Below are positions 1,204 to 31,900 of a DNA stretch of 64,000 bases, in pieces. Each line of letters begins with the position of its first letter. Position 1 is the stretch's first letter. The notes under the pieces were generated by a model, which made no database searches, was not told the origin of the DNA, and saw nothing but the letters and a program-made list of their open reading frames with translations. Location: positions 1 through 64,000 of the IMG/VR virus record IMGVR_UViG_2596583652_000001; one strand, given 5' to 3'. The DNA comes from a virus. Lineage: Duplodnaviria; Heunggongvirae; Uroviricota; Caudoviricetes. The position numbers were made by a program, and so were the translations under genes.

Positions 1204-1470
1204 ATGGCATTCGACAAAGAGCCTCGCACTGGCTTTGACGGCGGCGCTGCGATAGCGGCGGTCTGCCTGCTCGCGATCGGCGCATTCTTCTACAGCGCTG
1301 CTGATTTTGGCGAGCGGGAGGCAAGATACGCCGAGCAGCAGCGCCAGAAGGAAGCCATCTGCGGACGGATCGGCGCTGAATATGTGGAGCAGCGCAAGGG
1401 TATGCCGCTCTGTGTGTTGGCCGACGGTCAAGTGTTCCTCTTTCGATCTGTTAAGGAGCGATTCCAATGA
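1204..1470 (+). CDS. hypothetical N-terminally membrane-anchored small protein
   Basis: ATG at 1204 in frame with track ORF 1009..1470 (MAFDKEPRTGFDGGAAIAAVCLLAIGAFFYS...). One transmembrane helix. Confidence 0.4.
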   Translation: MAFDKEPRTGFDGGAAIAAVCLLAIGAFFYSAADFGEREARYAEQQRQKEAICGRIGAEYVEQRKGMPLCVLADGQVFLFRSVKERFQ

Positions 1471-1892
1471 TCTCCAAGCACTTCGTCGAGTTCCACTCGC
1501 CGGGCACGTTCCTCAGTGAGGTCTCCACCCGCGAGGTCGAGTCCTGGAACGTCGAGCTTGCCCTCGAGATGGCGAAGACGATCAAGGAGGGGCACGGCGC
1601 CGTGCCCTATGGCTTCTGCTTCACGACCCGCTCGCGTGGCGACAAGGATCTCGACAGCTCGGAGTCGGCGCGCAGCCATTTCCACTACCTCGGCGGCACC
1701 GTGCGGACCTATGAGCAGGTCGTGGCAGACGATCTGCCCGATGAGAAGGACCTTCGCGCCTACATGAAGCGCCGCGAGATCGACCGGATCATCGTGAACA
1801 CCAACTCCTGGAAGACCACCCGGCCGCTGGAGCCTGATGATGTGGTGCTGGAGTGGCCGCCGGCACCCGTCGAGAAACCTTCAGCCGCCTGA
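1467..1892 (+). CDS. hypothetical protein
   Basis: 141-aa ORF with ATGA overlap to the upstream gene. Normal composition. Confidence 0.5.
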   Translation: MISKHFVEFHSPGTFLSEVSTREVESWNVELALEMAKTIKEGHGAVPYGFCFTTRSRGDKDLDSSESARSHFHYLGGTVRTYEQVVADDLPDEKDLRAYMKRREIDRIIVNTNSWKTTRPLEPDDVVLEWPPAPVEKPSAA

Positions 1893-1910
1893 ATCGATCC
1901 ATCGTGCTCG

Positions 1911-1936
1911 CTGTTATAAGTGAGCAGTCACTTACG
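1911..1936. promoter_or_regulatory. palindromic motif copy (TTATAAGTGAGCAGTCACTTA)
   Basis: Perfect inverted repeat TAAGTGA-gcag-TCACTTA in the gap between 1892 and 1954. An identical 23-mer recurs at 7363. Confidence 0.5.
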
Positions 1937-1953
1937 AGACGAGAGCGCAGAGC

Positions 1954-2370
1954 ATGTGGATCAACCTGACAGACCAGGAGCGCGGGCTCATTAGCGTGTG
2001 TCTCAACGCACTCACGGTGCCCGAAGCCAAGGCGCTGATCGCGCGCCTCAACGAGCCGGCCGATCCCACGGACGGGACTTTCGTCGAGCGAGCGCGCGAG
2101 GACTACGAGTTCGGCTCGGATGGCGATGTGGACATTGACGATACGCCGGTCGTCTCGCGCAGCGAGAATGGCGCCTACGTCATGATGTGGGGCTGGGTGT
2201 CCAACGAGGACGCCGGCCTTGATGACGAGAGCGAGGACTTCTCGGTCGAGGCGCTGCAGGACGGCCGCTGGAAGTCGATCTTTCCCAAGCGCCTCTCCCA
2301 CCTCAATTCCGAACACGCGACCCATGCGGAAGCCTGGGCGCACATTCAGGAGCACGAAGACAATGAGTGA
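1954..2370 (+). CDS. hypothetical acidic protein
   Basis: 138-aa ORF. Confidence 0.5.
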   Translation: MWINLTDQERGLISVCLNALTVPEAKALIARLNEPADPTDGTFVERAREDYEFGSDGDVDIDDTPVVSRSENGAYVMMWGWVSNEDAGLDDESEDFSVEALQDGRWKSIFPKRLSHLNSEHATHAEAWAHIQEHEDNE

Positions 2371-3082
2371 CCCGAAGGCGCCCGTGGCGCACCCCACCCT
2401 TCCCGGCTTCATCGAGATGGGCCACGTCGATGTGGACGCTGGCTCCATCTGGATCGGCGACGGCTGCTACGTGCTGAAGGACGCGGACGAAAAGCGCCCC
2501 ACGGACCTCGGCGAGGACTGGCACGGCATATGTGAGCGGTTCTTCGGCCGGAGCGGTTACCGGCATCAACAGATCGAGTGGAGCCGCTGGTCCGGCGCGC
2601 GAGAACGGGATCTTTTTGACAGCCCGGAGTGGAAAGCCTGGGTCGAGAAGTGGGGTTTGAGACATCCCGACACCCACAAGTCCGACACCATCTGCTACGC
2701 CGAGAAGCACGAGGCGATGCAGCGGCACTACGAGCGCTATTCCGCGGAGCATCCGTTCCAGCCGACGTCCGTCGACACCGGCTTCGCCCAGTTCAACCAC
2801 GATCTCGGTCATGCCGGCATGGGTGTGATGGTCTCGACCTTCTACGGCGACGGGACCTACCCCGTCTATGTCGAGTATGGCGAGGGCGGTCGCCCGCGGC
2901 GCGTGCTGATCGACTTCGATCCCGGCGCCGAGAATGAGCTGGTGCGCGGGTCGCCGGCGGACATCTTCCGGGTGCTCAGCAGCCATTATCCCGAGCTTGC
3001 TTCCGGCGATCGCAACATCGCGCCGATGTGCAGGAAGATCTCCGACATCGGCTTCCCCGATCTTTCCGCCGAGGCGGCGTAA
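2363..3082 (+). CDS. hypothetical protein
   Basis: ATG at 2363 (MSDPKAPVAHPTLPGF...) in frame with track ORF 2219..3082. ATGAGTGA overlap with the upstream stop. The upstream extension is Arg/Ser-rich. Confidence 0.5.
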   Translation: MSDPKAPVAHPTLPGFIEMGHVDVDAGSIWIGDGCYVLKDADEKRPTDLGEDWHGICERFFGRSGYRHQQIEWSRWSGARERDLFDSPEWKAWVEKWGLRHPDTHKSDTICYAEKHEAMQRHYERYSAEHPFQPTSVDTGFAQFNHDLGHAGMGVMVSTFYGDGTYPVYVEYGEGGRPRRVLIDFDPGAENELVRGSPADIFRVLSSHYPELASGDRNIAPMCRKISDIGFPDLSAEAA

Positions 3083-3349
3083 GTGCAGCGCTTCCTACTC
3101 GCCGTCAGCCCATCCGGCCACTCGATGGTGCTGGGCCTCGAGGCCCGCACCAAAGCTGAGTGCGACCAGGTCATCCGATGGATGCACATCGCCCAGTTCC
3201 AGATGGACTACGTCATCGCGACCTATGACCGCGAGCACGATCACTTCGTCAGCGAAAGCGGACGTTCCTACCGGCCCGGCTCGTCGTTCTACACGGCGCA
3301 GGCTTGGGCCCGCTTCCAGCAATCACTCAGAGGAGAAAAGCATGCCTGA
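3083..3349 (+). CDS. hypothetical protein
   Basis: 88-aa ORF with a GTG start immediately after the upstream TAA (TAAGTG). Confidence 0.35.
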   Translation: MQRFLLAVSPSGHSMVLGLEARTKAECDQVIRWMHIAQFQMDYVIATYDREHDHFVSESGRSYRPGSSFYTAQAWARFQQSLRGEKHA

Positions 3350-3857
3350 CGTGAATTCGGTTGTCGCCGACAGCCTGGCCTCGATCCTGGCGATCAACAC
3401 CAAGATCGAACGCCTCAACGAAGAAGCCAAGACCGAGCGCCAGAAGGCCCTCGCTCCGTTCCTCGAGGCTCTGGCGAAGTCCGGCGAGGTCTCGGCGATC
3501 ATCGTCCGCGGCTACACGCCGGGCTTCAATGACGGCGAGCCCTGCGAGCACTCCGCGGACGTCTTCGTCAATATCGAGGAGATCTACGGAGAAGACCTGC
3601 AGGATACTGATGCCGGCGGCAACCTGCCGGAAGAGCTCTTCGAGGAACTCTCCTATGGCTCCGCCGACGCCAATCGGGAGCTGTGCACCAAGTTCGGCCA
3701 TGTCTACGACAAGCCGTCGGCGGAGATCATGAACGCCATCCGGACCCTGATCTTCGCGACCGCCGAGGAGGAGAACAGCACCAACTACTTCCTCTCTTAC
3801 GTGCTCAAGGACGGCAAGTTCGAGATCGCCTCGGGCGAATACGACTGCGGCTATTGA
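3342..3857 (+). CDS. hypothetical protein
   Basis: ATG at 3342 preceded by AGGAGAAAAG. In frame with track ORF 2934..3857 (MPDVNSVVADSLASILAINTKIERLNEEAK...). Confidence 0.5.
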   Translation: MPDVNSVVADSLASILAINTKIERLNEEAKTERQKALAPFLEALAKSGEVSAIIVRGYTPGFNDGEPCEHSADVFVNIEEIYGEDLQDTDAGGNLPEELFEELSYGSADANRELCTKFGHVYDKPSAEIMNAIRTLIFATAEEENSTNYFLSYVLKDGKFEIASGEYDCGY

Positions 3858-3878
3858 TCGAGCGCGGGTAGACGCACC

Positions 3879-4478
3879 ATGACCAAGATGATTTTCAACG
3901 CCCACAAGCCAGTCGTCACCCATTTGGGCGCCTTGCCTGCGATCGGTGACGACTGGCCGGTCGATGATTGGAAATATGCGGACGTGGAGTTCGTCTACCC
4001 GCGCACGACCGATCTTGTCCGGACGGTCATCGACCGTGCGCCGATCACGGGCAAGTTCAAGCGGGTCCTGATCGACGTGAAGGTGCAGGATCTCACACCC
4101 GAGTTCTGCTCCTGCATTCCCGGTTGGCATCTCGACGGCGCTTTTCCCAAGCCGGGTGCGCTGCCAGACCATCACCACCTGTTCGTGATGAACGGGCCGC
4201 TGACCGAGTTCATCGACGAGCCAGTGGCCTGCGAGGTGAGCTATCCCGTCGACATGCCGGCGATCCTGCGGCAGATCCCGCGGAATGTCCGGATCGGCAC
4301 CTGCGCGCCGAATGCCATCACGACCTTCACCAGCTACGACTTCCATCGTGGCGTCACGGCGAGCGCGCCAACGCGCCGCCTGCTTGTGCGGCTGACCGAG
4401 ACGAACACGGTCTTCGCAAGGAACACTCCGAAGGCGCCGAGCCAGGGCGCCCGGACACTCATTGGAGAGGCCGCATGA
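3879..4478 (+). CDS. hypothetical protein
   Basis: 199-aa ORF. Confidence 0.5.
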   Translation: MTKMIFNAHKPVVTHLGALPAIGDDWPVDDWKYADVEFVYPRTTDLVRTVIDRAPITGKFKRVLIDVKVQDLTPEFCSCIPGWHLDGAFPKPGALPDHHHLFVMNGPLTEFIDEPVACEVSYPVDMPAILRQIPRNVRIGTCAPNAITTFTSYDFHRGVTASAPTRRLLVRLTETNTVFARNTPKAPSQGARTLIGEAA

Positions 4479-4699
4479 TTGGGGAGTCTCGCTCATCCAG
4501 GCGGCGCTTCTTCATTAGGTTCGCCTGGCAGGAAAAGGCCGGCGATCACTACAAGCTCCGCAAGTTCGCCGTCTGGCCCATCCTGTTCGAGACCGCGGCG
4601 GATGCCTGGGCCTTCCTCAGCAGTTTGCCGGACCCGTTCCGGAACCTGCACGGGCGGCGAAAGCTGTCCCTCACCGTGAGATCTGTGAAGCTGCCATGA
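4475..4699 (+). CDS. hypothetical protein
   Basis: ATG at 4475 overlapping the upstream stop, in frame with track ORF 3968..4699 (MIGESRSSRRRFFIRFAWQEKAGDHYKLRKFAVWPILFE...). Confidence 0.4.
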   Translation: MIGESRSSRRRFFIRFAWQEKAGDHYKLRKFAVWPILFETAADAWAFLSSLPDPFRNLHGRRKLSLTVRSVKLP

Positions 4700-5148
4700 C
4701 CAAGATCTGCCAACCCGGCACCCTCGAGCGTGCCATCGTCATCGCGACCGAGGCGCATGCCGGTCAGACTGACAAGGCGGGCCAGCCTTACATCCTGCAT
4801 CCGCTACGGGTCATGACGAGCCTCGGCGTGAATGCTGGGCAGCCTTTGCGCATCGTGGCTGTGCTTCATGACGTGCTTGAGGACTGCGAAGCCTGGACGC
4901 CCAACCTGTTGCGCGCCGAGGGCTTTGACCCGCGGATCGTCGAGGCGGTCGAGGCGATCACCAAGCGCAAGCACGTCGAGACCTATGGCGAGTATATCCA
5001 GCGAGTTCGGGCTAACCCCCTCGCTCGCCTCGTGAAGATCGCCGACATCGAGGACAATCTGCATCCCGATCGCGCGTGGAGACTGAACCCTGATCAATGC
5101 TGGAAGTATGGACTCGCTATTGGCGAACTGCGCCGGCCCAACCTCTGA
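4696..5148 (+). CDS. HD-domain hydrolase of the RelA/SpoT type (small alarmone hydrolase-like)
   Basis: Translation carries the HD hydrolase signature: EAHAGQTDKAGQPYILHPLRV...AVLHDVLED...LVKIADIEDNL, corresponding to the H..HD..D metal-binding motifs of SpoT/Mesh1-type hydrolases. 150 aa with no synthetase domain. Confidence 0.7.
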   Translation: MTKICQPGTLERAIVIATEAHAGQTDKAGQPYILHPLRVMTSLGVNAGQPLRIVAVLHDVLEDCEAWTPNLLRAEGFDPRIVEAVEAITKRKHVETYGEYIQRVRANPLARLVKIADIEDNLHPDRAWRLNPDQCWKYGLAIGELRRPNL

Positions 5149-5155
5149 GGAAAAC

Positions 5156-6595
5156 ATGATCAACGGAAACACCCTCATCGAGTGGGGCTTCGAGCCGGGC
5201 CCGCTCTTTGGCCAGATGCTGCGCGACGCCAAGGCCCTCGCCGAGATCGGGATGACCAACGAAATGATCCGCGAGGAGCTGCGCATGCGCACGCCGGCTC
5301 CCGTGCCCGAGATCGCCTATCGCACCAACTCCATCCCGTTCAACGTCTTCCTCGACGCTGAGAATGACGACGAGCGCGCCAACAAGGCCGCGGTCGAGGC
5401 GCACATGGACGTGCTGATGCGCGTGCCGACGATCAAGCACGGCGCAGTGATGCCCGACGCCTGCCCGTCCGGCAGCGCGCCCGGCACCATTCCCGTCGGT
5501 GGCGTCGTCGCCGCGGAGAACGCGATCCATCCGGGGTTTCACTCGGCCGACATCTGCTGCTCGATGGCGATCTCCGTCTTCAAGCGCGACATGCCCATCA
5601 GCACGGTGATGGACACGGCGATGAAGACCACCCATTTCGGGTTCGGGCTCAACCCGCACCATGACCGCAGCGAGCTGCCGCCGGCGCTCGTCGGTCTGGT
5701 CAACCAGTTCGCCGACAACCCCTTCCTGAAGGATCTCGAGCGCTATGCGGTCGACCTGTTGCTGACCCAGGGCGACGGCAACCACTTCCTCTATGTCGGC
5801 CATCTCAGGTCGACCGGGCAGCTGGCGCTCGTCACGCACCACGGCTCGCGCGGCCTGGGCGCCCAGCTCTACAAGCGCGGCATGGCCGCGGCGCAGAAGC
5901 ACACCGCGAAGGTCGCTCCGCGCGTTCCGCTGCACAATGCCTGGCTCGAGGCATTCTCGGAAAGCGGCCAGCACTATTGGAAGGCCCTGCAGATCGTGCG
6001 GGAGTGGACGCGGCTGAACCACTTCGCGCTGCACCGCCTGATGCAGCAGCGGCTCGGGAATGCCATCGTCCACCAGTTCTGGAACGAGCACAATTTCGTC
6101 TTCCAGAAGTCGGATGGGCTGTTCTATCACGCCAAGGGCGCGACGCCCGCCTACAAGGGCTTCAGCAGCGACGACAGCGGCCAGACGCTCATTCCGCTGA
6201 ACATGGCCGAACCGATCCTGATCGCCAGTCCCTGGCCGGTTATGCGGCCCACAGCGCTGGAATTCGCACCGCATGGTGCCGGCCGCAACCTTTCGCGCTC
6301 CGGCCATATGCGCAAGCTGGCCGAGGAGTTCGGCGCCGACTCCCGCGGGCTCTCGGCGCGCGACAAGCTCGCCGTCGCCATGCGTGAGGTCACGGCGCGC
6401 GGTGTGGACGCCCGCTTCTACTGCGGCCACATCGACCTGTCGGAGCTGCCCAGCGCCTACAAGAACGCCCAGGCGGTGCAGGCGCAGATCGAGAAGTATC
6501 GGCTGGCCCATATCGACGACATGGTGCTGCCGGGCGGCGCGATCATGGCCGGCGATATCCAGCCCACCTGGCGCAAGAAGAAGCCGGCGAAATAG
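5156..6595 (+). CDS. rtcB: RtcB-family RNA ligase
   Basis: ATG at 5156 with a GAGGAAAA ribosome-binding site, in frame with track ORF 5108..6595. RtcB hallmarks are present: the Cys/His metal-site region MPDACPSG, HHGSRGLG, and the C-terminal APHGAGRN motif containing the guanylylated His. 479 aa. Confidence 0.75.
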   Translation: MINGNTLIEWGFEPGPLFGQMLRDAKALAEIGMTNEMIREELRMRTPAPVPEIAYRTNSIPFNVFLDAENDDERANKAAVEAHMDVLMRVPTIKHGAVMPDACPSGSAPGTIPVGGVVAAENAIHPGFHSADICCSMAISVFKRDMPISTVMDTAMKTTHFGFGLNPHHDRSELPPALVGLVNQFADNPFLKDLERYAVDLLLTQGDGNHFLYVGHLRSTGQLALVTHHGSRGLGAQLYKRGMAAAQKHTAKVAPRVPLHNAWLEAFSESGQHYWKALQIVREWTRLNHFALHRLMQQRLGNAIVHQFWNEHNFVFQKSDGLFYHAKGATPAYKGFSSDDSGQTLIPLNMAEPILIASPWPVMRPTALEFAPHGAGRNLSRSGHMRKLAEEFGADSRGLSARDKLAVAMREVTARGVDARFYCGHIDLSELPSAYKNAQAVQAQIEKYRLAHIDDMVLPGGAIMAGDIQPTWRKKKPAK

Positions 6596-6681
6596 CCTGC
6601 GCTTTGGCGCATAGCGCCTCCCGAAATCCAATCTGAAATGCAGCATCTTGATAGTCGACGCTATCGAGACAGGAGAGCTCT

Positions 6682-7335
6682 ATGAGCTACACTTACGTCA
6701 TTGGCGATATTCACGGCCGCGCCGATCTCCTCACGCTCGCCCTGCGCAAGATCGCCGACCATGCCCAGGAGCCGGGCACCATCATTACGCTCGGCGACTA
6801 CACCGACCGCGGCCCGGACAGCAAAGGCGTGGTGACGCGCCTGATGGCTGGCGTCAGCGACGGCTGGAAGATGATCAACCTCATGGGCAACCACGAGCAG
6901 ATGGTCTTCTGGACCTACCGCGGGAAGACCAAGCCCGATTGGTGGATCGACAACGGCGGCGACGCGACGATCGCCTCCTATGGCGGATCCCGCGAGAACA
7001 TCCCGGTGGAGCACATCGAGTGGATGGAGCAGCTGCCGCTCTTCCACGAGGATGAGCACCGGGTCTATGTCCACGCCTGGGTGGATCCCCACCTGCCCCT
7101 CAAAGAGCAGTCGGATTCCAGCATGCTCTGGGTGCGCTATCGCACGCCCTGGGAAGGCGGTTGGAACGACAAACACGTCGTTCACGGCCACACGCCGGTG
7201 CGGGGCGGACCTGCCATCTTCGAGCATCGCACCAATCTCGACACCGGCGCATTCGCCAGCGGTCTCCTCGCCGTGGGTGTTTTCGATGACGCCAAGCCGG
7301 GCGGACCTGTTCTCATTTTCAACATGACCGCCTGA
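6682..7335 (+). CDS. Ser/Thr protein phosphatase, lambda-phosphatase-like metallophosphoesterase
   Basis: The GDIHG, GDYTDRG and GNHE motifs in canonical order. Ribosome-binding site AGGAGA upstream. Confidence 0.8.
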   Translation: MSYTYVIGDIHGRADLLTLALRKIADHAQEPGTIITLGDYTDRGPDSKGVVTRLMAGVSDGWKMINLMGNHEQMVFWTYRGKTKPDWWIDNGGDATIASYGGSRENIPVEHIEWMEQLPLFHEDEHRVYVHAWVDPHLPLKEQSDSSMLWVRYRTPWEGGWNDKHVVHGHTPVRGGPAIFEHRTNLDTGAFASGLLAVGVFDDAKPGGPVLIFNMTA

Positions 7336-7362
7336 CGCCTGCGCGATCCCAGCACGCTCATC

Positions 7363-7388
7363 GTTATAAGTGAGCAGTCACTTATTAA
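7363..7388. promoter_or_regulatory. palindromic motif copy (GTTATAAGTGAGCAGTCACTTATTAAATGAGAG)
   Basis: Identical to the 1913 copy. Lies 12 bp upstream of the ATG at 7400. Confidence 0.5.
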
Positions 7389-7399
7389 ATGAGAGCCCG

Positions 7400-7513
7400 A
7401 TGCAGTTCCTCGCCGCCATTGGCGCCCTCGTGGTCGCCACCCTCCTTCTGGCCGGCGCGATCAAGATCGCGTCCGAGCTGACCTTCAAGCCTGACAAGAA
7501 AGGGAAGAAATGA
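7400..7513 (+). CDS. 37-aa hydrophobic peptide
   Basis: MQFLAAIGALVVATLLLAGAIKIASELTFKPDKKGKK. Below the ORF-track cutoff. Its stop overlaps the ATG of the SPFH gene (ATGA) and it directly follows the motif site. Confidence 0.3.
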   Translation: MQFLAAIGALVVATLLLAGAIKIASELTFKPDKKGKK

Positions 7514-8364
7514 AGCGCTTTACCCTCGGCCTGTTCGCCTTTGGCGCCCTCGCCGTTCTCGTGACCATCCTCGGCACCTACTACACCATCAATGAACGCG
7601 AGCGCGGCGTCATCCTGCGCAACGGCGCTGTCGTCGGTGACGCCGGCCCGGGCGCTCACCTCAAGGTGCCGTTCATCGACGACGTGGTCACGGTCTCGAT
7701 CGAGACCCAGAAGCAGCTCTACACCACGGCCGCCTACACGTTCGACCAGCAGCCGACGGATATCGCCCTGTCGGTCATCTACAGCGTGCCGGCCAGCCAG
7801 GTGAAGGCGCTCTATGCGCGCTTTGGCAGCATTGAGCGGATGATCGACAGCGTGGTCACGCCCAAGGTCATGGAGCAGACCAAGAACGTCCTCGGCGGCT
7901 ACACCTCGACGACGGCGGTGCAGAACCGCGCCAAGCTCAACAATGACGTCACCACGGCCATCTATCACGCCATCAAGGAGCTCAACGCGCCGATCCTCGT
8001 CGAGGCGGTGCAGATCGAGAACATCGACCAGAGCGACGCCTTCGAGCGGTCGGTCGAGGAACGCATGCTGGCCCAGGTCGAGGTCGAGAAGCTCAAGCAG
8101 AACGCGGAGCGCGAGAAGGTGCAGGCGCAGATTGTCGTCACCAAGGCCCAGGCTCAGGCGGACAGCCAGTTGGCCGTGGCAAAGGCGACCGCCGATGCCA
8201 CTCGTCTGCAGGGTGAAGCGGCCGCTGATGCGATCCGGGCCCGGTCCAAGGCACTCGCCGACAATCCGGCGCTGATCGAGCTCACCAAGGCCGAGAAGTG
8301 GAACGGAGCGATGCCGACCACCATGCTCCCCAACACGGCGATGCCCTTCTTCTCCCCGAAGTAA
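7510..8364 (+). CDS. SPFH/band-7 (prohibitin/HflKC-like) domain membrane protein
   Basis: N-terminal transmembrane helix. SPFH core (ERGVILRNGAVVG...LKVPFIDDV...) followed by a long Ala/Gln/Glu-rich coiled coil. Confidence 0.7.
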   Translation: MKRFTLGLFAFGALAVLVTILGTYYTINERERGVILRNGAVVGDAGPGAHLKVPFIDDVVTVSIETQKQLYTTAAYTFDQQPTDIALSVIYSVPASQVKALYARFGSIERMIDSVVTPKVMEQTKNVLGGYTSTTAVQNRAKLNNDVTTAIYHAIKELNAPILVEAVQIENIDQSDAFERSVEERMLAQVEVEKLKQNAEREKVQAQIVVTKAQAQADSQLAVAKATADATRLQGEAAADAIRARSKALADNPALIELTKAEKWNGAMPTTMLPNTAMPFFSPK

Positions 8365-8440
8365 GCCAGCATCGCCGGATCCACCACTATCAAGCGAGGG
8401 CGCCTCCGGGCGCCCTTTTCTTTTAGCTCGCGAACAGGGG

Positions 8441-11337: not shown

Positions 11338-11688
11338 ATGAAGATGCTTGAAGCCCTACTTGGAAAAGCCGTCGCCGAGCGGCGCCTGACGTTCGCCGTC
11401 GTCAACAACGAGGCGACGCTGTTTGTGCGCCTGTGCGGCGTCACGGTGCCGCTCGTGCGAGTGACGCGGGCCGAGCTCGACACGGGCGAGCTGACCATCG
11501 TGCCCTACGCGCCGCCGCGCGGACGCGGCACCATCCGGCATGCCGCGCCGCCCGCGCCGGCGCCGGCAGCCTGGCCGCTGCGCGCCGTGGTCAAGCGCCT
11601 TGTCGAGAAGGGCGACAACGTGCTCGCCTTCTGCCAGCGCCAGCCCGTCAATCCCTACGCGCCGAACGGCGGAGGAGACGCGGCATGA
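11338..11688 (+). CDS. hypothetical protein
   Basis: ATG at 11338 (MKMLEALLGKAV...) in frame with track ORF 11206..11688. The upstream extension would read through the motif. Confidence 0.45.
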   Translation: MKMLEALLGKAVAERRLTFAVVNNEATLFVRLCGVTVPLVRVTRAELDTGELTIVPYAPPRGRGTIRHAAPPAPAPAAWPLRAVVKRLVEKGDNVLAFCQRQPVNPYAPNGGGDAA

Positions 11689-12206
11689 CAGCATTTCGCG
11701 GCTCGGTGCTGACGGTCGAGACTCTGCGTGAGATAGAGCGCTCAATGGCCGCCTCTTTGGAAAGGGCTTACTACGTCGAACCCATGCGCCTCTGGGGCAA
11801 GAGCGTGGCGCCCTTAACCCAGTCGATCGCCGGAATCGACACTGCCTTCCGCTCGGCTGATAGCGCCCTTCGCGGCATGAGTGCCCAGCTGGTGCTCGAA
11901 GATGAGCTGGCAGGCTATCGACCCAGACGCTCGATCTCCCCTGCAGCCTCCTTTTCCGATCCGCATCTGGCCGGCACCAAGGTCGAGCTCTTCCTCGAGG
12001 AGATGGGCAAGCGCGATCCGCGCCATCCTAACCCAAAGGCGGGCCCGATCCAGATCGTCACCCTGATGGTGAACGGCGAGCGCCGCCCTGCCGGCCAAAT
12101 GTCCATGAAACGAGCCGTCAACCTGGCAAAGGCTACTCACCTGCGACTGGTGAAGGACGCCAAGGCCCGGCTCGCGGCCAACAATCCGAACTATGGGAGG
12201 TTCTGA
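11685..12206 (+). CDS. hypothetical protein
   Basis: ATG at 11685 with a GGAGGAGACG ribosome-binding site and ATGA overlap (MTAFRGSVLTVETLREIER...). Confidence 0.45.
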   Translation: MTAFRGSVLTVETLREIERSMAASLERAYYVEPMRLWGKSVAPLTQSIAGIDTAFRSADSALRGMSAQLVLEDELAGYRPRRSISPAASFSDPHLAGTKVELFLEEMGKRDPRHPNPKAGPIQIVTLMVNGERRPAGQMSMKRAVNLAKATHLRLVKDAKARLAANNPNYGRF

Positions 12207-12544
12207 TGAGCAACGACCCCGCGATCGTGGCCAAGATCCGCGAGCTGAACGACCAGCTCCGCACGACGGCAACCGGCGGCAAGATCGTAATCGTTGGCGC
12301 CCTGAGCGGTCAGCCGCTCTCGGAACACGCCGCGGCGTTGTCGCATGTCCGGCGCTTCGACAAGTTCGACGAGGGCAATGATCCCTATGGCGAACACGAC
12401 TTCGGCGCGTTCGAGATCGACGGGCAACGCTATCACTGGAAGATCGACTATTTCGCCCTCGACGAGATGTCGGGCTCGGAACACCCCGAGGATCCCAATG
12501 TCACCGTGCGGGTGCTCTCGATCTATTACGCCGAGGACCAGTGA
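12206..12544 (+). CDS. DUF3768-like protein
   Basis: 112 aa; ...SGSEHPEDPNVTVRVLSIYYAEDQ resembles the conserved C-terminus of DUF3768 plasmid/phage proteins. Recalled, not searched. Confidence 0.45.
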   Translation: MSNDPAIVAKIRELNDQLRTTATGGKIVIVGALSGQPLSEHAAALSHVRRFDKFDEGNDPYGEHDFGAFEIDGQRYHWKIDYFALDEMSGSEHPEDPNVTVRVLSIYYAEDQ

Positions 12545-24014: not shown

Positions 24015-24401
24015 ATGTCCATCACCGATCCGTTCGCCGGCAAGCCGCCCTACCGCGATGACGAGACGCCCCTTCCCTTCGTGCCGTCGATCGAGAAGCA
24101 GCTGCTGGCCGAGCGCCGAGCCCAGATCGCCCAGCTGGGTCGTCCCATCAAGCACCCGGGCCTGCCCGTCGCCGGCTACACCGCCCAGGACCCGGCCAAG
24201 ATCGCCGCGGTGAACGTCAACAAGGAGCTCGAGGAGCGCGTCCTGCGCCAGATCGACAAGCTCAAGCTCGACCAGGAGGGCCTCGAGCCCGATCAGTGCC
24301 TCATCGCCATCGCCCACACCCACATGCAGATCGCCTTCATGGTGCTGAACCGGGCGATCTTTAAGCCCGAGCGCATCAAGCTGCCGGAGGACGGCCAGTG
24401 A
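24015..24401 (+). CDS. hypothetical protein
   Basis: 128-aa ORF. Confidence 0.5.
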   Translation: MSITDPFAGKPPYRDDETPLPFVPSIEKQLLAERRAQIAQLGRPIKHPGLPVAGYTAQDPAKIAAVNVNKELEERVLRQIDKLKLDQEGLEPDQCLIAIAHTHMQIAFMVLNRAIFKPERIKLPEDGQ

Positions 24402-25490: not shown

Positions 25491-25757
25491 TCAGTCCTTC
25501 AGCTCCTTCTGCCGTGCTTCCCACGCCTCGAAGGACTGAATCAGGAGATCCTTCATGGACAGGTCGTGCATCGAAGCCGTCGCCTTGAACCGGCGGTGCC
25601 AGGTCTTGGGCATGTTGAAGGTCATGGCGGTGTAGGGCTCACCGTTCATGTTGTTCGCCGCTTCCTTCGGCGCCGCGGCGATCGCGGCCGCGCCTAGGAA
25701 AGACGCCTTCTGCGGCCGCACCGGCGCCGCCTTCGTCTTCGGCTTTTCCTCGCTCAT
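25491..25757 (-). CDS. small basic partition protein, ParG/ribbon-helix-helix-like centromere binder
   Basis: 88 aa with a Lys/Ala/Pro-rich flexible N-terminus and a short C-terminal structured region. Overlaps parA by 4 bp (ATGA). Confidence 0.5.
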   Translation of the reverse strand: MSEEKPKTKAAPVRPQKASFLGAAAIAAAPKEAANNMNGEPYTAMTFNMPKTWHRRFKATASMHDLSMKDLLIQSFEAWEARQKELKD

Positions 25758-26404
25758 AGTCGGTTCTCCGTCAGTCGGTTGACCCGGTCGACGATCTCCG
25801 CAGCAAGGGTGTCCGCCTTGTCGTTCAGGCTGGGGTATTTGCTCTCGGAAGGAGCGCGACCGGTGTTTTGGGCCATCGCGTAGCCCGTTTTGGCGGATAG
25901 ATCCTGCTCGGCCACCAGATAGAGCGACCCCTGCAGGATATATTGCCGCGCTTCGCTCACCGCCAAGTCGCTGTCCGTGGTCTTGTTGAGCACGAACATG
26001 ATCCGCTCCCTGGCGATGCCTTTGGCCACCAGCTCATTGGCAAATAGGAGCTGGGGCTTCAGATCGTCCAGCGTGAGGCCGGTCGGCACGACCACGAGCG
26101 TGGCCGCGCGAGCGATCTCGAGGCTCGACTGATCCGAATCCGGACGTCCGTCCGCCACGACGCAGTCGAAAGGCTCGCGCTTCATGGAGGAGGGGGAGTT
26201 GTAGGGCTCGGCGACGATGATGGGTTCGACGCCTTGAGCCGCGCGCATGGCGCACCAGTCGACAGAGGTCTTCTGCCGCGTGTTGAAGTCGCAGATCTTC
26301 ACCGACCAGCCCGCTGCGGCATAGGTGCGGGCCATGAGCCGGGCGATGGTCGATTTCCCGACCCCGCCTTTCTGCGAGAGACACCCGATGATCAGGTCAG
26401 CCAT
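25754..26404 (-). CDS. parA: ParA-family (type Ib, small) partition ATPase
   Basis: Deviant Walker A GCLSQKGGVGKST. 216 aa with no N-terminal HTH, i.e. the short ParF/Soj-like form. Confidence 0.85.
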   Translation of the reverse strand: MADLIIGCLSQKGGVGKSTIARLMARTYAAAGWSVKICDFNTRQKTSVDWCAMRAAQGVEPIIVAEPYNSPSSMKREPFDCVVADGRPDSDQSSLEIARAATLVVVPTGLTLDDLKPQLLFANELVAKGIARERIMFVLNKTTDSDLAVSEARQYILQGSLYLVAEQDLSAKTGYAMAQNTGRAPSESKYPSLNDKADTLAAEIVDRVNRLTENRL

Positions 26405-27743: not shown

Positions 27744-29336
27744 GCGGCAATTCCTTCAGCGGCGCCGCGGTTGGCAGCAAAGATGGACCAGTCGAAGTCC
27801 TGCCCGGCCGGCAGAATGCCCTCGACGAAGCCGGGCGTGTTGCGAACGATGTTCTCGCGCTGCCGGGCGTGGTCGCGCAGATAGGTGTTCAGGTTGCAGC
27901 TGTAGTCGGCGATGAAGGTGACGTTCGGCCCGCGCTTCTTGCGCCGCAGACCGCGGCCGATCCGCTGGCGCAGCTGCACCTCGGCCTTCATGCCGCCGAT
28001 GAGCTGGACGAGGGCGATCGCCGGCACGTCGACGCCGACGTCAAGAATGGTGGTGCCGATCACGCCATCGAGCTTGCCGGCGGCGAGGCGCTTGAGCTGG
28101 GTGCGCCGGGCGTCCTGGTCATCCTCGCCCTTGAGGAACTCGTAGGTGAGCCCGGCGTCCTTGTAGAGCTTGAGCAGGTTCGTGCCGTGCTTCTTGCGCG
28201 CGATCAGCGTGAGCACCGGCAGCCGGTAGATCGCGGCCATCTTGGCGTCGGTCACGGCCTGGGCGTGCATGTGCGGGTTCTCGACATAGCCGAGCTCATA
28301 GGCGCGCTCGAAGGGCGAGGTCTTGCGCAGCTTCTCGGGCGCGGGCACGTCGGCGAACTTGAAGATCGGCTTGGCGAGAATGCCGCGCTGGATGAGCAGC
28401 TCCTCGGGGATATTGATGAGGATCGGCCCGAAGGCGGCCATCAGGCGCATATTGTCGGCCGCCGAGTCGCGCATGAACGGCGTCGCCGTGAGCGCGACCC
28501 GGATCGTGGCGTTCTTGCAGTGGCGCAGGATCTCGTAATAGCTGTCGCCGCCGGCCTCGTGCGCCTCCTCGCCGATGACGACCTCGATCAGGGACAGGAT
28601 CTGGAGCACCTCGTTGCGCCGGCGCGTCTTGCGATCGAACGCCTCCTGGGCGAGCCGGGTGATCTCCTCATTGCTCATGTCGGCGTTCTTGTTCTTCGAC
28701 AGGTGGATCGATTTCACGATCGCCCGGCGCTCGACGCCGAGATCGGGCACCTGCAGCGCCTGCACCAGCGTCTGAACCATGCCGAGATTGACGCCGCGCA
28801 CGACGCGCATCTCGCCGTCGCCGATCTGCCCGGTGTTGAGGCCGATCGCCTTGAGCTGGTCGTCCATCTGGTAGAGGAGAATGCCGCGCGTGGTCAGGAA
28901 CAGCGTCATGCGTCGGTAGCGCGCCATGATCAGCTTGGCGATCTTCGACTTGCCGCCGCCGGTCGCCACCCGAATGATGCCGGCCCCGTGCTTCTCGACC
29001 TGGCGCAGCGCCTTCATCTGGTAGTCGTAGTCGGGATCGTCATTGCCGAACTCGTCGACGATCGGATTCTCCGGACCGAGCGGGCTCGCATGCGGCCGGC
29101 AGATACGGTTGACCGTGTGCCCGATGCGCGTCAGCTCCGCCTGCATCAGATGCACGAAGCCGGCCGGAAAGGTGTTCGTGATCACGTCGTAGAAGGACGA
29201 CTTGCCGCTCCAGGAGCCGCCCAGCCCCGCATCGACCTGATAGGACAGCAGCGATGTGGCGAATGCGGCGACCTCGCGGGACGGGTCGATCAGCTTCGCA
29301 ACGACCGCATTATGAGCGAGCTGGACGGTGGCCATG
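27740..29336 (-). CDS. DEAD/DEAH-box (SF2) helicase
   Basis: ATG at 29336 (MATVQLAHNA...). Walker A VATGGGKSKI, DEAH box IGEEAHEAG, motif III LTATP, and a C-terminal RecA-like domain with QLRQRIGRGLRR. Confidence 0.8.
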
Positions 29337-29373
29337 GAGATTCCTTCGGGTTGCCTATTGCCTTGTGGTCCGA

Positions 29374-29400
29374 ATATAGTAAGTAAGCACATACATCATT
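29374..29400. promoter_or_regulatory. palindromic motif copy in a divergent promoter region
   Basis: TAGTAAGTAAGCACATACATCAT lies between the minus-strand helicase start (29336) and the + strand ATG at 29415. Confidence 0.45.
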
Positions 29401-29414
29401 TGGACCTATTCCGC

Positions 29415-30143
29415 ATGCTCAAGCCTGAATTTTCCAGCGTTTCCGTCGGGCTCCTGCGGCCGAATCCCTGGAACACCAACCGCGTCGCCGCCGACAATGA
29501 GGCCAAGATCCGCGCCTCGATCGAGCGCAACGGTCTGTTCAAGCCGATCGTCGTCCGCCAGGTGAAGGATGTTGCGGGCTACGAGATCATCGGCGGCGAG
29601 CATCGCTGGGAGCAGGCCAAGGAACTCGGCATGACCGAGGTCCCGATCTGCAATCTCGGCTTCATCAGCGAGAAGCAGGCCAAGGAAATCGGCGTCATCG
29701 ACAATGCGCGCTACGGCGCCGATGACACGCTGTCCTTCGCCGAACTTCTGAAGGAGCTCGGCGATGCGGATGAGCTGCAAGAATTCCTTCCCTACGGCGA
29801 GACCGATCTGAATGCGATCTTCTCTGCATCAGATATAGCGCTGGACTCGTTGGAAATTGACGAGAGCTTCGAGCGCGAGGCCGAGGCCGCCGAGGAGGAA
29901 GGTCCCGTCACCCGCCCGGCCAAGACCCATGCCGTGATGCGCTTCAAGCTCAGCCTGGGCGACGCCGAGCGCGTCACTGCCCTGATCTCCCGGACCCAGA
30001 AGGAGCAGGGCCTCACCACGGCCGACGACCTCACCAATGCCGGCGACGCTCTCGTTCACCTGCTGCAGAGCCTTCTGCCCAAGCCCGTTCACCTCGCGGA
30101 CGAAGACGAGATCGACGCCGCGCTCCAGGAAATCGCGTCATGA
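29415..30143 (+). CDS. ParB-like nuclease domain protein (paralog 1)
   Basis: ATG at 29415 in frame with track ORF 29328..30143. ParB/Srx fold signature: PNPWNTNRV...IIGGEHRWEQAKELG. Confidence 0.65.
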   Translation: MLKPEFSSVSVGLLRPNPWNTNRVAADNEAKIRASIERNGLFKPIVVRQVKDVAGYEIIGGEHRWEQAKELGMTEVPICNLGFISEKQAKEIGVIDNARYGADDTLSFAELLKELGDADELQEFLPYGETDLNAIFSASDIALDSLEIDESFEREAEAAEEEGPVTRPAKTHAVMRFKLSLGDAERVTALISRTQKEQGLTTADDLTNAGDALVHLLQSLLPKPVHLADEDEIDAALQEIAS

Positions 30144-30814
30144 GCCACACGTCGTCGATCGAGATTTGGGATATCGAGAAGATCATCCCCTATGAGGCGA
30201 ACGCCAAGAAGCACCCCAAGGAGCAGGTGAAGAAGCTTGCCCAGGCAATCACCAAGTTTGGCTGGACTCAGCCGATCGTGGTCGATGTTGATGGCGTGAT
30301 CATCGCCGGCCACGGCAGGCGTCTCGCCGCGCTGGAGCTGAAGCTCACCAAGGTGCCGGTCATTCACCGGGCCGACCTGACCAAGGCCGAGGCGGACGCG
30401 CTGCGCCTCGCCGACAACCGGGTGGCCTCGACCGATTACGACCAGGCGCTGATCCAGGACGAACTGCGCCGGCTCGCGGATGAGCTCGAGGGCTCCCAGA
30501 TCACGCTCCTCGATATCGGCTTCGACGAGAAGGAGCTCGAATTCACCATGAGCGACCTGGGCGAGGTCAATGACGACTTCTTCGTCGAGGACGTCGGCGA
30601 GGCGGTCGAGCAGCAGAAGAAGGAGAACGCCAAGGCGATCGAGGCGACGGACGACGTCGCCGCGCCGATCGGTGACGCCTTCGGCTTCAAGCGTGTCTCC
30701 ATTGCCCAGTCGCGCGCCATCCGCGAAATGATGAGCACCATCGAGACCTCGACCGGCAAGGTGGGGCCCGAGGCGCTGATCCTGTTCCTTTCCGACGCCC
30801 TCAATCGTAAGTGA
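30140..30814 (+). CDS. ParB-like nuclease domain protein (paralog 2)
   Basis: IIPYEANAKKHPKEQ...IIAGHGRRLAALEL is the classic ParB N-terminal box. ATGA overlap with paralog 1. Confidence 0.65.
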   Translation: MSHTSSIEIWDIEKIIPYEANAKKHPKEQVKKLAQAITKFGWTQPIVVDVDGVIIAGHGRRLAALELKLTKVPVIHRADLTKAEADALRLADNRVASTDYDQALIQDELRRLADELEGSQITLLDIGFDEKELEFTMSDLGEVNDDFFVEDVGEAVEQQKKENAKAIEATDDVAAPIGDAFGFKRVSIAQSRAIREMMSTIETSTGKVGPEALILFLSDALNRK

Positions 30815-31241: not shown

Positions 31242-31900
31242 TGGCCCGCTACGTCATCAATCGCTCCTTCACCTCCTCGGTCATGCGCACGCCGCGCGTG
31301 CTGGAGATCGCCGAAGGTTTCGGGCTCGGTCTCACCGACAAGCAGTTCGTCGTCTATGACAACCTCGAGCTCGAGATCGAGCAGGGCGACGTCGTCTACA
31401 TCAACGGCCAGTCCGGCTCGGGCAAGTCGCTCCTGCTGAAGGATCTTGCGACTCAGATGCGCCGGGACGGACTGCGCGTCACCGACCTCAACGAGGTGGT
31501 GCTGGAGGAAAAGCCGGTCATTGAGCTGGTCGGCCGCACCATCAGCGAGGCGACCGATCTCCTGGCCAAGGCCGGCATCTCCGACGCCTGGATCTACATC
31601 CGCAAGCCCAGCGAGCTCTCGGACGGCCAGCGCTATCGGCTCAAACTCGCCAAGGTCATGGAATCCGACGCCGATGCCTGGATCGCCGATGAGTTCGGCG
31701 CCGTGCTCGACCGCGTCACCGCCCGCGTCGTCGCCTTCAACATGACCAAGGTCGCCCGACGCATGGGCAAGACGCTCATGGTCGCCACCACCCACACCGA
31801 TCTCAAGGACGAGCTGGCGCCCAGCCTGATCGTGACCAAGCGCTTCCGCGAGAAAGTCGAAACCGAGCGCGGTGTCGCTCAGCTTGGAGAAGCAGCATGA
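31241..31900 (+). CDS. ABC-type ATPase domain protein
   Basis: Walker A GQSGSGKS, ABC signature LSDGQRYRLKLA, Walker B DAWIADEF, and an H-loop ATTHTD. Confidence 0.65.
   Translation: MARYVINRSFTSSVMRTPRVLEIAEGFGLGLTDKQFVVYDNLELEIEQGDVVYINGQSGSGKSLLLKDLATQMRRDGLRVTDLNEVVLEEKPVIELVGRTISEATDLLAKAGISDAWIYIRKPSELSDGQRYRLKLAKVMESDADAWIADEFGAVLDRVTARVVAFNMTKVARRMGKTLMVATTHTDLKDELAPSLIVTKRFREKVETERGVAQLGEAA

Follow-up and report, generated by a model that had tools for sequence, protein, structure and literature searches.

Organization of the locus

The window, i.e., the whole stretch of 64,000 nucleotides analyzed here, carries at 4696-7335 three consecutive + strand genes encoding an HD hydrolase (150 aa), an RtcB protein (479 aa), and a metallophosphatase (MPP; 217 aa) (Table 1). 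All three ORFs lie where an earlier note on this DNA had placed them, and the motifs quoted there are present. Their GC content is 0.76 to 0.90 at the third codon position versus 0.42 to 0.44 at the second, which marks them as real genes and not chance ORFs. By the same codon-position measure, two antisense ORFs (5117-6646 and 3327-4496, both on the - strand) were dismissed as high-GC shadows.

The three genes are part of a longer co-directional and tightly packed string, in the order p199, p74, HD, RtcB, MPP, small transmembrane ORF, SPFH gene, and terminator-like hairpin. The p74 gene has a 4-nt ATGA overlap with each of its flanking genes, and an ATGA overlap also joins the small transmembrane ORF to the SPFH gene. 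To judge from the sequence, the genes of the string are probably co-transcribed, with transcription probably ending at the hairpin. No Pfam match and no homologue in related loci were found for p74, while ORFs of 37 to 47 aa occupy the position of the small transmembrane ORF in the relatives. Since the window contains no tRNA genes, RtcB is not associated here with a tRNA cluster. Such tight linkage, with ATGA overlaps and 7 nt separating HD from RtcB, would equally be expected of a functional operon, and it counts against the mosaic reading presented in the Discussion.

Table 1. Features of the gene string
Feature	Position	Strand	Basis or remark
p199, small protein with predicted 2OG-Fe(II) oxygenase fold	3879..4478	+	First in the string; context, outside the claimed triplet
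p74, 74-aa ORF	4475..4699	+	Sequence read; gene call on a public contig too
Putative RSH-type HD hydrolase, Aph1/PbcSpo group	4696..5148	+	Pfam HD_4, TIGR00691, 7smg match
Putative RtcB RNA ligase	5156..6595 (from 5108, 495 aa)	+	Pfam RtcB, phrog_1075, catalytic residues
Lambda-phosphatase-like metallophosphatase (PPP/ApaH/PrpA group)	6682..7335	+	Pfam Metallophos, phrog_246, Foldseek
Small transmembrane ORF, 37 aa (ATG 7400) or 47 aa (GTG 7370)	7400..7513	+	Sequence read
SPFH/Band_7 (HflK/C-like) membrane protein	7510..8364	+	Pfam Band_7 (4e-26), phrog_200
Terminator-like GC-rich hairpin and T-run	8396..8417	+	9-bp stem with 7 GC pairs, then TTCTTTT; consensus match only

The HD hydrolase

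The HD protein had been described in the earlier note as a stand-alone RSH-type hydrolase, and our searches placed it in the RelA/SpoT superfamily and narrowed the assignment further. It matched Pfam HD_4 (1.7e-8), phrog_990 (2.7e-43), and, over residues 1 to 86, the N-terminal hydrolase region of TIGR00691 (9e-14). There is a single domain, with no further Pfam match and no synthetase domain, and the residues of the RSH motifs H...HP, HDxxED, and ADxxxN (H21, H35, H58-D59, E62-D63, D117, and D120-N121) are invariant or nearly so. The best solved structure was 7smg, the "(p)ppApp hydrolase" Aph1 (E of 1e-25). Five of the six residues of the Aph1 signature (D24, R96, D116, R119, K133, and Y134 in Aph1 numbering) are kept, as D26, R103, R126, K137, and Y138; at the position of D116 the protein has H123, where 84% of 120 homologues have Asp. 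On these matches the protein is assigned to the Aph1/PbcSpo group of small alarmone hydrolases (SAHs) and is predicted to be a (p)ppApp 3'-pyrophosphohydrolase. It is like Aph1 (PDB 7SMG) and the PbcSpo SAHs in its single HD domain of ~150 aa, its RSH motifs, and its occurrence on a phage, but it differs from Aph1 in the His just mentioned and in its adjoining genes, among which neither a (p)ppApp synthetase nor a MuF toxin was observed. An identical protein (100%) is encoded on a 114,107-bp contig of Ancylobacter rudongensis; the next relative is 56% identical, and gp220 of Salmonella phage PVP-SE1 is 46% identical.

Aph1 was found as an immunity enzyme and also guards against the T6SS toxin Tas1, and its homologues hydrolyze ppApp and protect from Tas1/Apk toxins. 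All 12 of the 12 Aph homologues tested hydrolyzed ppApp and preferred it, and activity of Aph1 on ppGpp required the mutation of two residues, which are D26 and R126 in the protein studied here. The SAHs of phages PVP-SE1 and SSU5 neutralize every toxSAS toxin tested, and the SAH antitoxin ATfaRel and human MESH1 restored the aminoacylation of pyrophosphorylated tRNA. Phage RtcB and HD alarmone phosphodiesterases have earlier been proposed as counter-measures. A counter-toxin role of the HD protein and an RNA-resealing role of RtcB each have a published precedent.

The RtcB ligase

The identification of the second gene as RtcB was borne out by matches to Pfam PF01139 (83.3 bits against a cutoff of 27; 2.8e-23) and phrog_1075 (3.4e-84) and by the presence of all the catalytic residues. 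D101, D132, C135, N209-H210, H228/H229, H312-N313, and H373 (in HGAGR) are invariant in 32 clade members and align with D65, D95, C98, H234, and H404 of the Pyrococcus horikoshii protein, the alignment of H329 being ambiguous by two residues. We place the start at ATG 5156, which yields the 479 aa given in the earlier note, because three indications agree: a GAGGA Shine-Dalgarno sequence that lies 5 nt before it and overlaps the HD stop, an N-terminus that fits the family pattern MIxGxTLIxWGF, and the public gene call, which begins there too. The residues identify the product as a putative 3'-phosphate/2',3'-cyclic phosphate to 5'-OH RNA ligase. RtcB enzymes depend on a 3'-phosphate or 2',3'-cyclic phosphate at the end to be joined, which needs no prior healing.

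The protein belongs to an alphaproteobacterial RtcR-linked clade, which has its own N-terminal extension of ~70 aa (no Pfam match in the N-terminal 80 aa) and whose chromosomal members adjoin RtcR in 45 of 80 loci. It did not reach the NCBIfam equivalogs PRK09588 (54 versus 407 bits) and PrfH-linked release_rtcB (38 versus 272 bits), and the clade is separate from both. Homologues 54 to 71% identical are abundant on contigs of 110 to 120 kb, and the identity to RtcB of Rhizobium phages V1VFA-S, B1VFA, and RHEph10 is 56 to 62%; a scan of IMG/VR with RtcB as a single protein gave no relatives, and these were found by alignment-based scans. All the metal-binding and guanylylation residues are shared with RtcB of the bacterial RtcR-RtcB(A) operon and with phage RtcB (phrog_1075). 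Unlike the bacterial operon, in which same-clade chromosomal members adjoin RtcR, the window locus has no RtcR, RtcA, or archease.

The metallophosphatase

That the third gene encodes a lambda-type phosphatase was sustained by the top structural match. The AF2 model (pLDDT of 93) gave as its best Foldseek hit lambda phosphatase 1g5b (TM of 0.70 to 0.73), followed by RLPH2, 2qjc, the phosphatase domain of CthPnkp (TMq of 0.75), and ApaH. The sequence matched Pfam Metallophos (1e-11) and phrog_246, annotated as "NinI-like" (5e-48), and contains the motifs GDxHG, GDxxDRG, and GNHE plus distal His ligands (D9, H11, D39, R43, N70-H71, H131, H168, and H170); of these, all but R43 were recorded as invariant in the family. 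By its model, MPP thus has a predicted lambda-phosphatase-like fold. It shares this fold, the metal-ligand motifs, and a length of ~220 aa with lambda Ser/Thr phosphatase (NinI, PDB 1G5B) and the ApaH/PrpA/RLPH group of PPP enzymes, but its identity to lambda phosphatase is just 22%, and it lies under every NCBIfam equivalog cutoff: the models for PrpA/PrpB, ApaH, PrpE, and Pnkp all scored below cutoff, the best at 46.7 bits against 326. An AGGAGA Shine-Dalgarno sequence precedes the ATG at 6682, and outside the source contig the closest relatives are bacterial proteins, 55% identical. Among phage enzymes, the metallophosphoesterase Gp48 of a mycobacteriophage is nuclease-like and disrupts the integrity of host genomic DNA. 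The idea that MPP might be the phage "ADPR-1P phosphatase" extending NARP1 was discarded, that enzyme being a Macro-domain protein and not a metallophosphatase.

The phage lineage and its variable slot

The element is a ~114-kb plasmid-like siphophage of the RHEph10/pLM21S1 type in A. rudongensis, with the gene string in its accessory region. The 114-kb source contig sits in a bacterial assembly, many of the relatives are 112- to 122-kb contigs within rhizobial assemblies, and RHEph10 and pLM21S1 have been described as plasmid-like prophages. Other genes of the phage include ParA and two of the ParB_N family, all three in the window, as well as Acb2/Tad1-like and Tad2-like genes.

When homologues of the window genes (1-14 kb) were sought in 87 related loci, RtcB was present in all 87 and SPFH in 15, HD in 2 (32 to 34% identical), MPP in 3, and p199 and p74 in none. 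The closest relatives, RHEph10/B1VFA-like phages of 112 to 122 kb, have in common with the window only RtcB and the downstream SPFH gene. RtcB of V1VFA-S, B1VFA, RHph_N1_10, and four further contigs (L004-L007) is flanked by other genes, neither HD nor MPP. The upstream "HD superfamily" genes of these three named phages proved to be YfbR-like 5'-deoxynucleotidases rather than RSH enzymes and are no counterparts of the HD gene.

In this phage lineage SPFH is the conserved downstream neighbor of RtcB: 13 related loci have it at a distance of 0.56 to 4.8 kb, and the interval between the two genes is a variable slot. In several relatives it holds NadM/Nudix and NAMPT genes, a NARP2-type NAD+ salvage pair known for counter-defence, and in the window it holds MPP. 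The constant RtcB and SPFH flanks with changing cargo recall the variable accessory or anti-defence slots; unlike NARP2, the cargo in the window is a lambda-type phosphatase, whose anti-defence role is at most a candidate one. Because it sits in a slot that houses NARP2-type genes in relatives, MPP is a reasonable candidate for anti-defence screening.

In the RHEph10-type relatives a different HD_4 hydrolase of ~185 aa is encoded downstream of RtcB at a distance of 2.6 kb, flanked by homologues of two genes that abut in the window (11685-12206 and 12206-12544). As this gene lies elsewhere than the window HD gene, the hydrolase function recurs in the lineage through different genes and slots.

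Co-occurrence of HD, RtcB, and MPP

We surveyed up to 80 loci per anchor, retrieved by short peptide patterns from IMG/VR and GTDB genomes (320 loci in total), a scale and method that rare triplets could escape. HD, RtcB, and MPP occurred together in 0 of the 320 loci anchored on RtcB, HD, or MPP. Of the 80 IMG/VR loci anchored on RtcB, 8 had HD and 3 had MPP at a distance of up to 8 kb; at up to 1 kb, the numbers fell to 2 and 0. Loci anchored on HD contained RtcB in 2/80 cases and MPP in 0/80; those anchored on MPP contained HD in 5/80 and RtcB in 1/80; and bacterial loci anchored on RtcB contained HD in 0/80 and MPP in 2/80. Pairs were therefore found in at most 10% of the loci, at a similar frequency whichever gene served as the anchor. 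The one control, the rate of HD near another accessory anchor (MPP; 5/80), resembled the rate near RtcB (8/80). This points to genes that tend to share accessory regions in general rather than to a specific link. An HD_4-type hydrolase lies at most one gene from RtcB in at least three other viral contigs, apparently unrelated (L167, L086, and L046), and a genuine HD-RtcB link may exist.

Discussion

The earlier note had read the three genes as one coordinated system of RNA repair and toxin reversal, which undoes the harm that abortive infection does to the translation machinery; such a pathway would operate in lytic growth. The family assignments on which this reading was built stand, but no support was found for the coordinated module. 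The note had named a lack of the triplet elsewhere as evidence against itself, and that is the outcome of the survey, with the nearest relatives lacking both neighbors of RtcB. The tight co-directional packing and likely co-transcription argue for the pathway, as does the conceivable action of all three enzymes on tRNA ends: ATfaRel and MESH1, both SAHs, remove the 3'-CCA pyrophosphate, RtcB seals breaks, the MPP fold resembles the end-healing phosphatase domain of CthPnkp, and the near-adjacency of HD_4 and RtcB recurs in the three viral contigs. The steps of such a pathway would not fit together, however. The 3'-phosphate on which RtcB depends is the very group that a phosphatase would take off, so that with a 3'-phosphatase or cyclic phosphodiesterase at work the ligase would lose its substrate. 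The T4 Pnkp-Rnl1 and bacterial Pnkp-Hen1 systems likewise pair an RNA ligase with a phosphoesterase in conflicts over tRNA damage, but they use a 5'-kinase and an ATP-dependent ligase on healed 3'-OH/5'-P ends, whereas RtcB takes unhealed ends directly, and neither a kinase nor an ATP-dependent ligase for healed ends was found in the string and its neighbors (1467-8364). Chromosomal RtcB of the same clade pairs with RtcR and never, in 80 loci, with HD, and the PADLOC protein models matched neither the three proteins nor their neighbors, nor did any other system-level model. We regard the single pathway as very unlikely. If the three genes did form one system, the operon would be the first of its kind in a phage, joining alarmone or tRNA 3'-end de-pyrophosphorylation with RNA ligation, and would help to explain how phages withstand abortive infection aimed at translation. 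A looser arrangement, a recurrent two-enzyme kit for tRNA restoration in phages with the lambda-type phosphatase as an optional third activity, is a distinctly doubtful proposition as well. Here the SAH would break down ppApp and clear tRNA of the 3'-CCA pyrophosphates that CapRel/FaRel2-type toxSAS attach, and RtcB would reseal anticodon-loop cuts. The two genes would have come together on several independent occasions: in the window, in the contigs L167, L086, and L046, and in RHEph10-type phages, where they lie within 2.6 kb.

Other readings concern whom the enzymes serve. Because the element is a plasmid-like phage, the cell that carries it may just as well be the beneficiary: the genes would give the lysogen broad enzymatic immunity against toxins from other bacteria or superinfecting phages (e.g., (p)ppApp synthetases of the Tas1/Apk type and RNases of the colicin or CDI type), and not against defences met in lytic growth. 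The partition genes, the residence of the contig and its relatives in bacterial assemblies, the discovery of Aph1 as an immunity enzyme, and the origin of the phage RtcB in a host-type, RtcR-regulated repair clade all fit this idea, but the Tad2-like and Acb2/Tad1-like genes serve the phage, and the idea concerns the beneficiary and not the mechanism, so that it overlaps the explanation favored below; as a separate account we hold it to be unlikely. Immunity to a toxin of the element itself, in the manner of Aph1 and the MuF-fused Apk2 of a Bacteroides prophage, would repeat the founding context of the family. It is nevertheless highly improbable: no RelA_SpoT synthetase domain was among the matches listed (Pfam, 81 ORFs of the 64-kb window of the 114,107-bp contig; 25 of 26 matched families were listed for a batch of 62 ORFs), and just 0.4% of Aph1 homologues adjoin MuF genes, according to the Aph1 paper. 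Host take-over, in which HD would lower alarmones to sustain translation and the phosphatase would reset host phosphoproteins or Ap4A pools, draws on the ability of SAHs to hydrolyze (p)ppGpp and on the weak matches of MPP to the PrpA/PrpB and ApaH models; against it stand the retention of D26 and R126, the preference of all the tested Aph homologues for ppApp, and the distance of MPP from every equivalog cutoff, and we give it little credence.

On balance, the locus is probably a mosaic accessory or counter-defence cluster of independently acting enzymes and not a conserved system. The trio was found together solely in this plasmid-like phage, and its members look like separately acquired accessory genes: RtcB and SPFH would form the lineage backbone, and HD and the lambda-type phosphatase would be separate lineage-specific insertions, one on each side of RtcB. 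Each enzyme most likely works alone. For their substrates and their part in counter-defence or relief from toxins, we infer that HD would hydrolyze the 3'-pyrophosphate from the (p)ppApp that toxSAS or Tas1-type toxins synthesize, possibly acting also on 3'-pyrophosphorylated tRNA; that RtcB would reseal tRNA or rRNA after cleavage by ribotoxins whose products end in 2',3'-cyclic phosphate and 5'-OH; and that MPP may act on a protein, an Ap4A-type nucleotide, or another phosphoester. With this locus, the accessory genes described for the RHEph10/pLM21S1 plasmid-like phages come to include an Aph1/PbcSpo-type hydrolase and a host-type RtcB; the RSH hydrolase function is retained in this lineage by non-orthologous genes that sit in different places.

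Organization of the gene cluster

The genes for an RSH-type HD hydrolase (HD), an RtcB RNA ligase (RtcB), and a lambda-type metallophosphatase (MPP) lie at the positions given in the earlier note and are part of a longer, tightly coupled gene string. It opens with p199, encoding a small protein with a 2OG-Fe(II) oxygenase fold, and ends with SPFH, encoding a Band_7 (HflK/C-like) membrane protein. HD and RtcB are separated by 7 nt, and RtcB and MPP by 86 nt, with AGGAGA ahead of the MPP start. Codon-position GC showed the three ORFs to be real genes (GC3 of 0.76 to 0.90 versus GC2 of 0.42 to 0.44), while the long antisense ORFs, which the same measure marked as shadows of the 63% GC genome, were rejected. 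The start of RtcB is ATG 5156, in agreement with the N terminus of the family and with the public gene call; the GAGGA Shine-Dalgarno sequence before this ATG overlaps the HD stop codon. The SPFH protein gave sub-cutoff matches to the FtsH modulators HflK and HflC; it could have a role in lysis-lysogeny control or membrane stress, given that the phage is plasmid-like and temperate.

Features of the window and of related loci (L numbers, loci retrieved by homologue-anchored searches)
Feature	Position	Strand	Length (aa)	Remark
p199	3879-4478	+		First gene of string; 4-nt ATGA overlap with p74
p74	4475-4699	+	74	4-nt ATGA overlap with HD
HD	4696-5148	+	150
RtcB	5108/5156-6595	+	495/479
RtcB N-terminal region	5156-5395	+	~70-80
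MPP	6682-7335	+	217
Small TM ORF	Between MPP and SPFH			4-nt ATGA overlap with SPFH
SPFH/Band_7	7510-8364	+		Last gene before hairpin
Terminator-like hairpin	8396-8417			3' of SPFH
DUF3768, DUF3307, DUF4314, and DUF4241-like ORFs	12206-12544, 85-441, 674-979, 2366-3082	+
Acb2/Tad1 hairpin-domain protein	24015-24401	+	128	PF24729, 6e-13
ParA-type ATPase	25754-26404	-
ParB_N protein 1	29328-30143	+
ParB_N protein 2	30140-30814	+
Tad2-like protein	31897-32199	+	100	DUF2829, PF11195, 1.6e-20; just 5' of terminase region
HD_4 hydrolase of relatives	L002 9864-10421; L013 12044-12592; L015 and L016, equivalent positions		~185
Conserved protein 5' of RtcB	L012 6815-7228		~137
Metallophosphoesterase-like protein	L189 4528-5781		~417
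ArfA-like ORF	L006 10577-10762; L007 6378-6506			3' of SPFH

Family assignment of the three enzymes

The family labels proposed in the earlier note agreed with the Pfam and PHROG profile matches of all three products: HD_4 (1.7e-8) and phrog_990 (2.7e-43) for HD, RtcB (2.8e-23) and phrog_1075 (3.4e-84) for the ligase, and Metallophos (1e-11) and phrog_246, "NinI-like serine-threonine phosphatase" (5e-48), for MPP.

Judged by its sequence, HD belongs to the SpoT/Mesh1 superfamily, as the earlier note demanded, and more precisely to the Aph1/PbcSpo group of small alarmone hydrolases (SAHs). The closest solved structure was the 149-aa (p)ppApp hydrolase Aph1 (7SMG; E = 1e-25), followed by long RSH enzymes and Mesh1-type SAHs (5e-9 to 1.5e-3). 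Of the specificity signature described in the Aph1 paper (D24, R96, D116, R119, K133, and Y134), HD shares five residues (D26, R103, R126, K137, and Y138) but carries His123 at the D116 position, which is Asp in 84% of 120 homologues. HD is also 46% identical to gp220 of Salmonella phage PVP-SE1, a PbcSpo-type phage SAH that neutralized all five classes of toxSAS (alarmone-synthetase-type toxins) in E. coli.

The 479-aa protein was confirmed as an RtcB also by its metal-binding and guanylylation residues (D101, D132, C135, N209-H210, H228/H229, H312-N313, and H373 in HGAGR), which are invariant throughout its clade. Its score was far under the NCBIfam equivalog cutoffs. In bacteria, the commonest neighbor of this clade was a divergently transcribed RtcR (45/80 loci), which matched Pfam RtcR at 1.7e-75 and also bears a sigma-54 activator domain; the phage enzyme therefore derives from a host-type Rtc RNA-repair ligase. 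Members of the clade, whether from phages or from chromosomes, share a conserved N-terminal region (MIxGxTLIxWGFxPGxWF...), which had no Pfam match and may resemble the helical motif at the C terminus of class II CCA-adding enzymes. Recurrent neighbors of phage RtcB were an RNase_T-type exonuclease and, directly 5', the conserved ~137-aa protein (FVFGSNLAGRHGAGAA...YAIPTKD; 12 of 80 viral loci), whose slot is occupied by HD in the window.

MPP is predicted to be a lambda-phosphatase-like PPP metallophosphatase, with all the PPP metal ligands present. The best structural match of its model (pLDDT of 93) was lambda phosphatase (TM score, 0.70 to 0.73), followed by RLPH2, a trypanosome ApaH-like protein, the phosphatase domain of C. 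thermocellum Pnkp, and ApaH. Directly 3' of the MPP-family gene, 17 of 80 phage loci encode a ~417-aa protein with metallophosphoesterase-like motifs of its own (DNHF..., GNHD), which is absent from the window.

Conservation of the gene triplet

The three genes are best read as a mosaic cluster of accessory genes carried by a plasmid-like phage, made up of new members of enzyme kinds already known. HD, RtcB, and MPP served in turn as anchors, and up to 8 kb on each side was scanned with HMMs (120 homologues per protein) at 80 loci for each protein in IMG/VR plus 80 RtcB loci in bacterial genomes. None of the loci in these four sets contained all three genes, so the conserved synteny looked for was not found. 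Around viral RtcB, HD was present in 8 loci (2 within 1 kb) and MPP in 3 (none within 1 kb); around HD, RtcB occurred twice (once adjacent) and MPP never; around MPP, HD occurred in 5 loci and RtcB in 1. At the bacterial RtcB loci, HD was absent and MPP was found twice, once adjacent on the opposite strand. HD thus lies near MPP about as frequently as near RtcB, the expectation of general co-residence in accessory regions. A tblastn search of 50,697 phage genomes recovered 45 records with RtcB and 235 with the HD family, from largely different host genera.

In a comparison of the window genes at 1 to 14 kb with 87 related loci, homologues of RtcB were present in all 87, of SPFH in 15, of MPP in 3 (up to 43% identity, in L011, where the gene lies 2.2 kb 5' of RtcB), of HD in 2 (32 to 34% identical), and of p199 and p74 in none. 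Small, unrelated genes surround the nearest relatives of this RtcB (61 to 63% identical). The proposal of the earlier note that the triplet is one coordinated RNA-repair and anti-toxin system is therefore not upheld.

A variable slot between RtcB and SPFH

RtcB and SPFH constitute a backbone pair. The stretch separating them (6596-7509 in the window, compared with L001, L003, L005, L006, L009, L011, L014, L033, and L040) ranges in length from 0.56 to 4.8 kb. Its content is a NadM/Nudix plus NAMPT pair in Rhizobium phages V1VFA-S and B1VFA and in L005, L009, L014, and L040, a Nudix gene in L011, and unassigned genes, including a 536-aa ORF, in other relatives, whereas the window carries MPP instead. 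NadM/Nudix plus NAMPT is the canonical salvage pair making up the NAD+ counter-defense pathway NARP2 and has been reported as a variable module in pLM21S1.

In RHEph10-type relatives, an HD_4 (RSH-type) hydrolase of ~185 aa, distinct from HD, is encoded 2.6 kb 3' of RtcB. Its gene sits between counterparts of the window genes at 11685-12206 and 12206-12544 (DUF3768, 1e-24), which abut in the window. This hydrolase is apparently a non-orthologous substitute for the alarmone hydrolase, in a different location. An RSH-type hydrolase is therefore retained in the lineage, though by non-orthologous genes at differing sites, which argues for selection on this single function and not on adjacency to RtcB.

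The host element

HD and MPP of the window each have a 100% identical counterpart in Ancylobacter rudongensis, encoded on a 114,107-bp contig of an assembly of that species. The window encodes a terminase, portal, tape-measure protein, and gpJ-like protein. In some regions, above all RtcB and the terminase-to-capsid block, it shows ~75% nucleotide identity with the 115- to 122-kb Rhizobium phages RHEph10, B1VFA, and V1VFA-S and the RHph_N1_10 group. Many RtcB relatives lie on 112- to 122-kb contigs of rhizobial assemblies. A ParA and two ParB_N genes coexist with the full set of siphovirus structural genes, which, with the A. rudongensis contig and those of the RtcB relatives, fits the plasmid-like prophage group whose described archetypes are RHEph10 and pLM21S1.

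Judging by its domain, the Acb2/Tad1-like product may be a sponge that captures cyclic-nucleotide immune signals; with the Tad2-like gene in the same phage, it indicates that the phage invests in counter-defense. Four ORFs in the arm of the triplet bear DUF domains, that of DUF4241 type being a C-terminal region. In a related 115-kb phage contig, a small ORF 3' of SPFH has a weak precomputed match to ArfA (alternative ribosome-rescue factor A), which hints at another translation-rescue gene in this arm.

Possible roles of the enzymes

By established biochemistry, RtcB seals 3'-phosphate or 2',3'-cyclic phosphate ends onto 5'-OH ends directly, without a healing step, and a lambda-type phosphatase is able to remove a 3'-phosphate or to open a cyclic phosphodiester. 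The three enzymes therefore do not add up to a coherent pathway of three steps: acting in this way, the phosphatase would destroy the RtcB substrate, and profile and Pfam scans of the gene string and its neighbors (1467-8364) found no kinase or ATP-dependent ligase able to use the healed ends. Each enzyme could plausibly act alone, in a role with precedent. Aph-family enzymes hydrolyze ppApp and protect from Tas1/Apk toxins; phage SAHs neutralize toxSAS toxins, including those pyrophosphorylating tRNA; and tRNA that carries a 3'-pyrophosphate can be aminoacylated again after the action of the SAH antitoxin ATfaRel or human MESH1. Since the element is plasmid-like, the enzymes might equally well shield the carrier cell from interbacterial toxins. 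That HD confers self-immunity, countering a (p)ppApp synthetase encoded on the same element, is unlikely, because no synthetase domain was among the Pfam matches listed for the ORFs of the window, ~50 kb of the element lying outside it.

Elsewhere, the RtcB ligases and HD alarmone phosphodiesterases of phages have been put forward as countermeasures to ribotoxins and alarmone-based immunity. That HD and RtcB together form a two-enzyme "tRNA restoration" pairing seems improbable to us. Three further viral contigs, apparently unrelated, have an HD_4-type hydrolase no more than one gene away from RtcB: RtcB is followed by an Aph-like HD after 5 nt in L167 and by a 93-aa ORF and then HD in L046, and HD is followed by a 67-aa ORF and then RtcB in L086.
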